Notes: generated from the letters alone by a model not told the origin. DNA of 64,000 nt from an uncultured Sphingobacteriales bacterium (GCA_964542585.1 CAZIUI010000011.1:5831-69830), one strand, 5' to 3'; shown: positions 59,311-59,975, counted from the first letter of the stretch. Made by a program: numbers and translations.

Positions 59311-59337
59311 AGGATTTCATTTTTGATTTAACAGGGG

Positions 59338-59345
59338 CAAACTTA
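59338..59345 (-). promoter_or_regulatory. Candidate -7 promoter element (TAAGTTTG on minus strand) ~28 nt upstream of P6 start
   Basis: Plus-strand CAAACTTA = minus-strand TAAGTTTG (TAnnTTTG). Confidence 0.25.
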
Positions 59346-59863
59346 ACAATTTTTTAAAATCGGAAAAAACACTAATCATTGAATTTTTTGAAACAGGGCC
59401 ACCCATTCCTCTTTTTTTGATTCTTTTTAATAGCCTATTTAAAAATAAGTTGAAACCTTACAAAAGAGAAGATGATTTTATTTTGGCATTGTATTATTAA
59501 CTAAAGCGTGTATAAATGTAAATTGTCAATTATTACCTCAAAAAAGCCTTAGTGGACATTCATAGGCAGCATTCCAAAGTAAGAACAATCCTTCAATGCT
59601 CAATTTCGTGAGGCAAAAAGTTCAAACTTTATAGCTTACAAGGCAACAATCAACCTTGTGTAAATAAAACATTGCTTTACCTCCATCAGGATTCAAATTT
59701 GATCTTTGGGTACTGGTACAAAGTGATTTAAAATTTTAAGTCATCCCTTTTTTGAATTGAAAAGTCATAAAAGATTAATTATTACGTTTTAACTTTTAAG
59801 CTTAAAAATTAATCATCAATATGCAGAAATACGTCAATTACTGATTACTTTAAGCTTTTTCAA

Positions 59864-59879
59864 ACATTGTTAACAATGT
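59864..59879. promoter_or_regulatory. Perfect 16-bp palindrome ACATTGTTAACAATGT (candidate dimeric regulator operator)
   Basis: Read directly; self-complementary across a GTTAAC centre; ~97 nt upstream of the ATG at 59976 within a 665-bp AT-rich non-coding region. Confidence 0.3.
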
Positions 59880-59975
59880 AACATTAGCAGTTTTTAAGCC
59901 TATGATTTTAAGCAGCTCCAACAAAATAGGAACTTATTGATGGAGCATTGGTTTAAATAGTTAAAAGGTGTAGGT

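Follow-up and report, generated by a model that had tools for sequence, protein, structure and literature searches.

The window analysed here, a stretch of DNA of 64 kb, comes from the genome of an uncultured member of the Bacteroidota, and carries genes for GldB, for cytochrome c maturation and central metabolism, and for type IX secretion cargo whose domains include Por_Secre_tail and CHU_C. Among the cargo is a protein of 2957 aa (14306-23179) that has PKD repeats, about 24 of them, and a type IX secretion signal of the CHU_C kind, and two more proteins with Por_Secre_tail are encoded at 811-2871 and 38901-41861. The gap studied below lies between two divergent genes. To its left, P6 starts at 59310 on the minus strand and belongs to an array of paralogous lipoproteins, all on the minus strand (51389-59310), in each of which a cysteine and an acidic run come after the signal peptide; the array adjoins a sodium:solute symporter gene. 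To its right, a small ORF of 90 aa starts at 59976 on the plus strand, and on that side also lie genes for a PagL-like outer-membrane protein and for an enoyl-CoA hydratase. The interval is 665 bp, its G+C content is 28.9% while that of the 64-kb window is about 43%, and the longest ORF inside it has 29 aa. An earlier note on this DNA had described the region as AT-rich and free of ORFs, which is borne out, and its coordinates, its length of 665 bp and the position of a palindrome in it are likewise confirmed by reading the sequence from 59000 to 60600. The features of the locus are as follows.

58363..58398, minus strand: intrinsic terminator of P6, a GCCCGCTTA/TAAGCGGGC stem followed by TTTTTATTT
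58426..59310, minus strand: P6, lipoprotein paralog of 294 aa with a signal peptide and an SSCSDDD lipobox region
59311..59975, no strand: divergent intergenic region, AT-rich, 665 bp, between P6 (minus) and the 90-aa ORF (plus)
59311..59369, minus strand: conserved block with the putative P6 promoter and 5' UTR, 86-90% identical to L003/4/5/11, L012, L017 and L018
59338..59345, minus strand: -7 box TAAGTTTG, exact match to TAnnTTTG, candidate P6 promoter
59693-59702, no strand: perfect palindrome TCAAATTTGA, not palindromic at the aligned L014 positions
59721..59800, plus strand: mid-spacer island, the only mid-spacer part conserved with L014 (about 80%; a block of 71 nt)
59728-59739, no strand: perfect palindrome TTAAAATTTTAA, not palindromic at the aligned L014 positions
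59794-59807, no strand: perfect palindrome TTTTAAGCTTAAAA, not palindromic at the aligned L014 positions
59864..59879, no strand: perfect 16-bp palindrome ACATTGTTAACAATGT, its own reverse complement, most likely functionless
59929..59954, plus strand: footprint GGAACTT-N14-16-GGTTT, located 22-47 nt ahead of the ATG of the small ORF
59976..60248, plus strand: conserved 90-aa protein, adjoining the PagL-like gene

For the comparison of the spacer we recovered six related lineages, given below with the identity of their small ORF and with the spacer that each of them holds.

L001: small ORF 100% (same strain), spacer known over 212 nt only
L014/L015: small ORF 89%, spacer of 657 bp, homologous to that of the window
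L016-L018: small ORF 91%, spacer of about 283 bp
L003-L005 and L011: small ORF 76-77%, spacer of 248 bp
L012: small ORF 76%, spacer of about 282 bp
L006-L009: small ORF 63%, spacer of 307 bp

L019 was excluded from the palindrome comparison, as its sequence ends 59 nt ahead of the small ORF, short of the palindrome. A search of genome contigs with the PagL-like neighbour returned one spurious cyanobacterial locus and nothing else, and a search of metagenome contigs with the small-ORF alignment gave no match. The spacers compared are L005 6008-6255, L006 1607-1913, L017 8-290 and L014 3621-4277. Their length varies from 248 to 665 bp where the flanking proteins are 63-91% identical, the long form being seen only in the window and L014, and the middle is too diverged for the boundaries of this length difference to be defined. 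On the whole, the window and L014 share 59% identity over the spacer, with peaks of conservation at 59311-59360 (70-95%), 59461-59500, 59721-59800 (up to 90%) and 59921-59950, while blastn against the more distant lineages (63-77%) matches only 59311-59369. We discarded a reading of the mid-spacer as decayed paralog or repeated mobile element, since neither blastn nor tblastx finds a match to it in the window or in the relatives except the 71-nt block of L014. An Rfam scan for non-coding RNA, which the earlier note had called for, leaves the gap without a match, both at the gathering threshold and at E<=1, and cmscan on the whole window reports a single tRNA (29032-29105).

At the left end of the gap, the earlier note had pointed to a -7-like element 28 nt before the P6 ATG, and this stands: TAAGTTTG is found at exactly this distance, matches TAnnTTTG without mismatch and is conserved. 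The sequence CAAACTTA at the -7 box is identical in L005, L012, L014 and L017, with CAATATTA in L006; the block 59311-59369 is 86-90% identical in these four lineages, its identity to L014 being 70-95% in the comparison of the spacers. The sigma-A promoter consensus of Bacteroidota, mapped genome-wide in Flavobacterium psychrophilum, consists of TTTG at -33 and TAnnTTTG at -7 (PMC9723704). Like the F. psychrophilum promoters (PMC9723704), the putative promoter of P6 has an exact TAnnTTTG, placed 28 nt before the ATG and conserved in the orthologous spacers; as with them, boxes also precede P3 and P5, and there is no Shine-Dalgarno sequence. Unlike them (PMC9723704), P6 has no exact TTTG at -33, the expected distance (about 20 nt spacing) being occupied by TTTTTTCCG. 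Relative to the ATG the motif starts at -35 for P6, -37 for P5 and -44 for P3, all three with exact boxes, and near matches to TAnnTTTG are present upstream of P2 and P4. Over the whole window TAnnTTTG is not enriched (58 sites against 69 expected), and a scan for sigma-70 sites and terminators gives fewer sites than in its shuffles. We infer that the TAAGTTTG block is a candidate sigma-A promoter of P6, and its conservation argues for this assignment.

The conserved left end was also compared together with the beginning of the gene. The stretch 59207-59393, comprising the putative promoter, 5' UTR, signal peptide and lipobox, is 80-81% identical to L014 3517-3703 and L005 5907-6067, and the conserved N-terminus of the first array gene reads MN/TIKK/RLLINT.MIGAVAMAPMTMSSC. 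The gene bodies that follow this cassette are not orthologous, their lengths being 294 aa for the window, 193 aa for L014 and 181 aa for L005, and an orthologue of the P6 body is found in L006 (73% DNA identity over 58363-58926). A conserved 5' cassette joined to non-orthologous bodies suggests that recombination or cassette exchange has taken place within the lipoprotein array.

At the right end, the small ORF is a real gene. Its homologues are 63-99% identical, with 50 of the 90 columns invariant, and they always adjoin a PagL-like gene, in a narrow lineage only. Its AlphaFold model (pLDDT 86) has a beta-alpha-alpha-beta-alpha-alpha fold, with no significant neighbour in the PDB, DNA-binding or otherwise, and the protein belongs to no Pfam or NCBIfam family. 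The small ORF was also considered as an autoregulator and this was rejected, as it has neither a Pfam/NCBIfam family nor a structural neighbour. The gene order around the spacer is not universal: in L010 10001-11776, where the PagL-like protein is 66% identical, no small ORF is called, and a gene of 194 aa on the strand of the PagL-like gene starts 70 bp past the stop of the latter. In front of the small ORF, GGAACTT-N14-16-GGTTT is common to five lineages, i.e., the window, L014, L017, L005 and L012. This footprint holds no TAnnTTTG and no CGT box. Two readings of it by eye were not adopted, namely a sigma-54 promoter, as the spacing does not fit -24/-12, and an ECF promoter, as there is no CGT -10 box. 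The footprint is the best candidate for a promoter of the small ORF, of a kind not resembling sigma-A.

Between these two ends lies the palindrome ACATTGTTAACAATGT, with dyad symmetry in 16 of 16 positions and flanks (A59863 and A59880) that do not lengthen it. In the earlier note a perfect 16-mer palindrome was held to be unlikely by chance, which the numbers contradict. In 200 first-order Markov simulations matched to the composition of the window, perfect palindromes of at least 16 bp occur with a mean of 1.25 per simulated 64-kb window, and at least one is present in 68.5% of the simulations; the real window has exactly one. The shorter classes show no excess, with 3 observed against 4.97 expected for at least 14 bp, and 16 against 18.9 for at least 12 bp. 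If the gap were a pre-chosen target, a 16-mer palindrome in 665 bp would have P = 0.043-0.05. In addition, the gap has four perfect palindromes of at least 10 bp (10, 12, 14 and 16 bp), all located within 190 bp at 59693-59879, and those of at least 12 bp number 3 against 0.5 expected, with P of about 0.013 in a post hoc test. The L014 spacer has a sole perfect palindrome of at least 10 bp, which sits elsewhere than any of the four in the window.

Further copies of the palindrome were sought in the window and beyond. Allowing up to 3 mismatches, the whole window has one other match, ACATTGCTAACATTGT at 37983, which is non-palindromic and lies within a radical-SAM gene, and no other spacer of the 64-kb window holds a copy within this limit. 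The half-site AACAATGT occurs 4 times in the window against 3.4 expected, two of the four being the palindrome itself. In public metagenome contigs the exact 16-mer is found in at least 120 stretches, scattered and with one site each; the flanks of these matches are uninformative, and among those listed none resembles the flanks in the window (best 26/60). As these matches are single and their flanks uninformative, the palindrome is not part of a repeated element.

The relatives that align at the palindrome position, three lineages in all, show the following 16 nt.

Window: ACATTGTTAACAATGT, symmetric core of 16 bp
L014/L015: ATGGTATTAATAATGC, 10/16 match to the window, symmetric core TATTAATA of 8 bp
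L016: TTGACATTAATCATAT, 7/16 match to the window, symmetric core of 6 bp
L017/L018: TTGACTTTAATCATAT, symmetric core of 4 bp

The consensus of L016-L018 at this position is TTGAC(T/A)TTAATCATAT, and in the spacers of L005, L006 and L012 no perfect palindrome exceeds 12 bp, nor does blastn match any of them to the palindrome part. In a 20-bp window over the palindrome, the identity to L014 is 65%, against 59% for the whole spacer. A functional 16-bp operator is expected to stand out as a conserved island in such a near-neutral background, and the palindrome is no such island. The copy count is 1 in the 64-kb window, and the symmetry is not conserved in L014/L015 or L016-L018; a palindrome single in the whole genome and unconserved in related strains was what the earlier note had named as speaking against its reading. 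At the level of single positions, the pair 6 and 11 is G:C in the window and A:T in L014, so that symmetry is kept there, and the right arm AACAATGT is nearer to AATAATGC and AATCATAT of the relatives than the left arm is. The closer right arm fits a chance origin, or a single template switch that copied the right arm onto the left.

Several functional readings of the palindrome have to be weighed against these observations. The earlier note saw in it the operator of a dimeric helix-turn-helix regulator that controls the small ORF or the array, and our analysis gives this no support. In the form weighed here, the palindrome would be a recent and strain-specific operator or upstream activator site, bound by a dimeric transcription factor encoded outside the window and acting on the small ORF promoter some 50 nt downstream, which we regard as distinctly unlikely. 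Like the operators of HTH dimers, e.g., SOS boxes (PMC8565304), it is an intergenic perfect dyad of operator-like length, here with a perfect symmetry of 16 bp; unlike them (PMC8565304), it is unconserved, present in a single copy, off the predicted promoter and without a nearby cognate regulator. Its position is in favour of an operator, as the spacer bears promoters and the ATG of the small ORF follows after 96 nt, while the site itself is outside the conserved footprints, ending 49 nt upstream of the GGAACTT footprint and separated from the P6 -7 box by over 500 nt. A region-level P of about 0.04-0.05 and the one symmetry-preserving change with respect to L014 point the same way as this position, and are set against the symmetry not conserved in L014/L015 or L016-L018, and against the 64 kb having no second site and no enrichment of half-sites. 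As for the regulator, the earlier note had found none encoded nearby, and this holds for the 64-kb window, whose 43 ORFs with a length of 120 aa or more all lack HTH and recombinase domains; the gene of a regulator could lie elsewhere in the genome, and a genome-wide regulon could extend beyond the 64 kb searched. The SOS motifs of Bacteroidetes are CTAA-N5-TTAG and GGA-N5-TCC (PMC8565304), and ACATTGTTAACAATGT matches neither, so that an SOS box was rejected. Most improbable of all, in our estimate, is a functional hairpin of RNA or DNA, be it as terminator, attenuator, small-RNA segment, replication origin or dif-like site. In its favour, either strand can pair into a stem of 6 bp closed by a TTAA loop, and the surroundings are AT-rich; against it, there is no T run directly 3' of the stem, the fold z-scores are -0.3 and -0.9, the gap has no Rfam match, the spacer has no DnaA-box match, and the sequence is unconserved, unlike a dif or origin site. 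Three related candidates were rejected: a structured RNA, with fold z-scores of -1.9 to +0.4 over both strands and folds that differ from those of L014; oriC, with no DnaA-box match within 1 mismatch in 59311-59975; and a 28-bp dif, as the site is not conserved in the relatives.

Another reading concerns the spacer as a whole. An inverted repeat pairs 59286-59302, which are P6 codons 4-8, with 59768-59784 (16 of 17 positions match), and the right arm is held by 59721-59800, which resembles an inverted and degenerate copy of the P6 promoter and first 8 codons. The extra sequence of about 380 bp in the window and the L014 lineage would then be an inverted partial duplication of the P6 cassette, the repeat its relic or the ends of an invertible segment, and the palindrome decayed coding sequence; an active segment would turn P6 off and point its promoter at the small ORF (phase variation). 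We find this unlikely as an account of the gap. In gapped alignment the block and the P6 cassette reach a score of 40, where shuffles give 24.5 +/- 4.5 (P=0.003, post hoc), and the L014 block aligns with the cassette of the window at P=0.001; the L014 block gives no significant alignment with the cassette of L014 itself, and its arms are degraded to about 12/17. A strict local alignment is equalled in 2 of 300 shuffles, whereas softer scoring is not significant, and the 16/17 repeat is one of 19 inverted repeats in 6.6 kb, singled out after the fact. The right arm falls within the only conserved mid-spacer island, and its inner flank supplies an in-frame TTG; against this, the similarity ends after the first 8 codons, and the -7 box of the copy is destroyed (TAAGTCAT). 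The contigs L001, L015, L017 and L018 end within a few nt of the arms, which speaks for this reading, though short Logan contigs break for many reasons, and no recombinase domain is present in the window among ORFs of at least 120 aa. Taken as history, 59721-59800 may be the relic of an old inverted partial duplication and a possible source of the extra 380 bp or so, and an active inversion switch is unlikely. We give very little credence to a stronger form, in which the repeat and the inverted copy would mark an invertible or recombining expression site, with the cassette flipped or swapped between bodies, phase or antigenic variation as the outcome, and the palindromes as a by-product. Such a site would be like the promoter switches of Bacteroides surface molecules (PMC4747536), as the P6 promoter is enclosed by an inverted repeat of 17 nt and P6 is a surface lipoprotein in a paralog array; it would be unlike them (PMC4747536) in that one arm is part of the P6 coding sequence, the closest relative has the repeat in degraded form, no recombinase is found in the 64 kb, and there is no sign of a second orientation. 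If true, the 5' cassette on non-orthologous bodies together with the inverted relic would suggest that surface lipoproteins in this lineage vary through recombination.

Overall, we think it most likely that the gap is a divergent promoter region like others already known, with nothing unusual about it, and that the palindrome arose by chance and has no function. At the left end, a promoter of sigma-A type with TAAGTTTG would drive P6 leftwards; at the right end, rightward transcription of the 90-aa ORF probably relies on GGAACTT...GGTTT, located 22-47 nt ahead of its ATG. The middle, about 500 bp, would be an AT-rich spacer whose sequence and length evolve almost freely (248-665 bp among relatives). 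The palindrome lies in this free part, in this strain only, and most likely arose by chance, or in one step by a template switch of the right arm onto the left. Quasipalindromes are corrected by template switching during replication, when one arm is copied onto the other. The palindrome is like such a case in that the right arm of the window resembles the relatives and the left arm is its exact complement; a background divergence of 41% yields the same differences without a single event, and with 2-3 sequences the two routes are indistinguishable. What counts against a chance origin is the P of about 0.04-0.05 for the gap as a pre-chosen target, the post hoc P of about 0.013 for the palindrome cluster, and the symmetry-keeping pair 6/11. 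A false lead is thereby removed, as one perfect 16-mer palindrome per 64 kb at 43% G+C is at chance level and this one fails conservation. The useful outputs are a conserved candidate sigma-A promoter of P6 and a candidate promoter element for the lineage-specific 90-aa protein.

A further output is sequence evidence on how the lipoprotein paralogs may be transcribed. Beside the box of P6, exact TAnnTTTG boxes are located upstream of P5 (58072-58079) and P3 (56106-56113). A canonical GC-rich hairpin followed by a T run comes after P6 (58363-58398) and after P4 (56208-56243), and a weaker hairpin after P5 (57401-57434). With -7 boxes and terminators of their own, the paralogs look like separate transcription units, and they are probably independent rather than one operon. 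This is in accordance with the suggestion of the earlier note that each paralog may carry its own promoter, which the exact boxes of P3, P5 and P6 and the terminators of P4 and P6 support. Unlike the other paralogs, the first one is probably co-transcribed with the transporter. This gene (51389-51970, 193 aa), which has no promoter box of its own, begins 8 nt ahead of the symporter stop (symporter gene 51963-53774).
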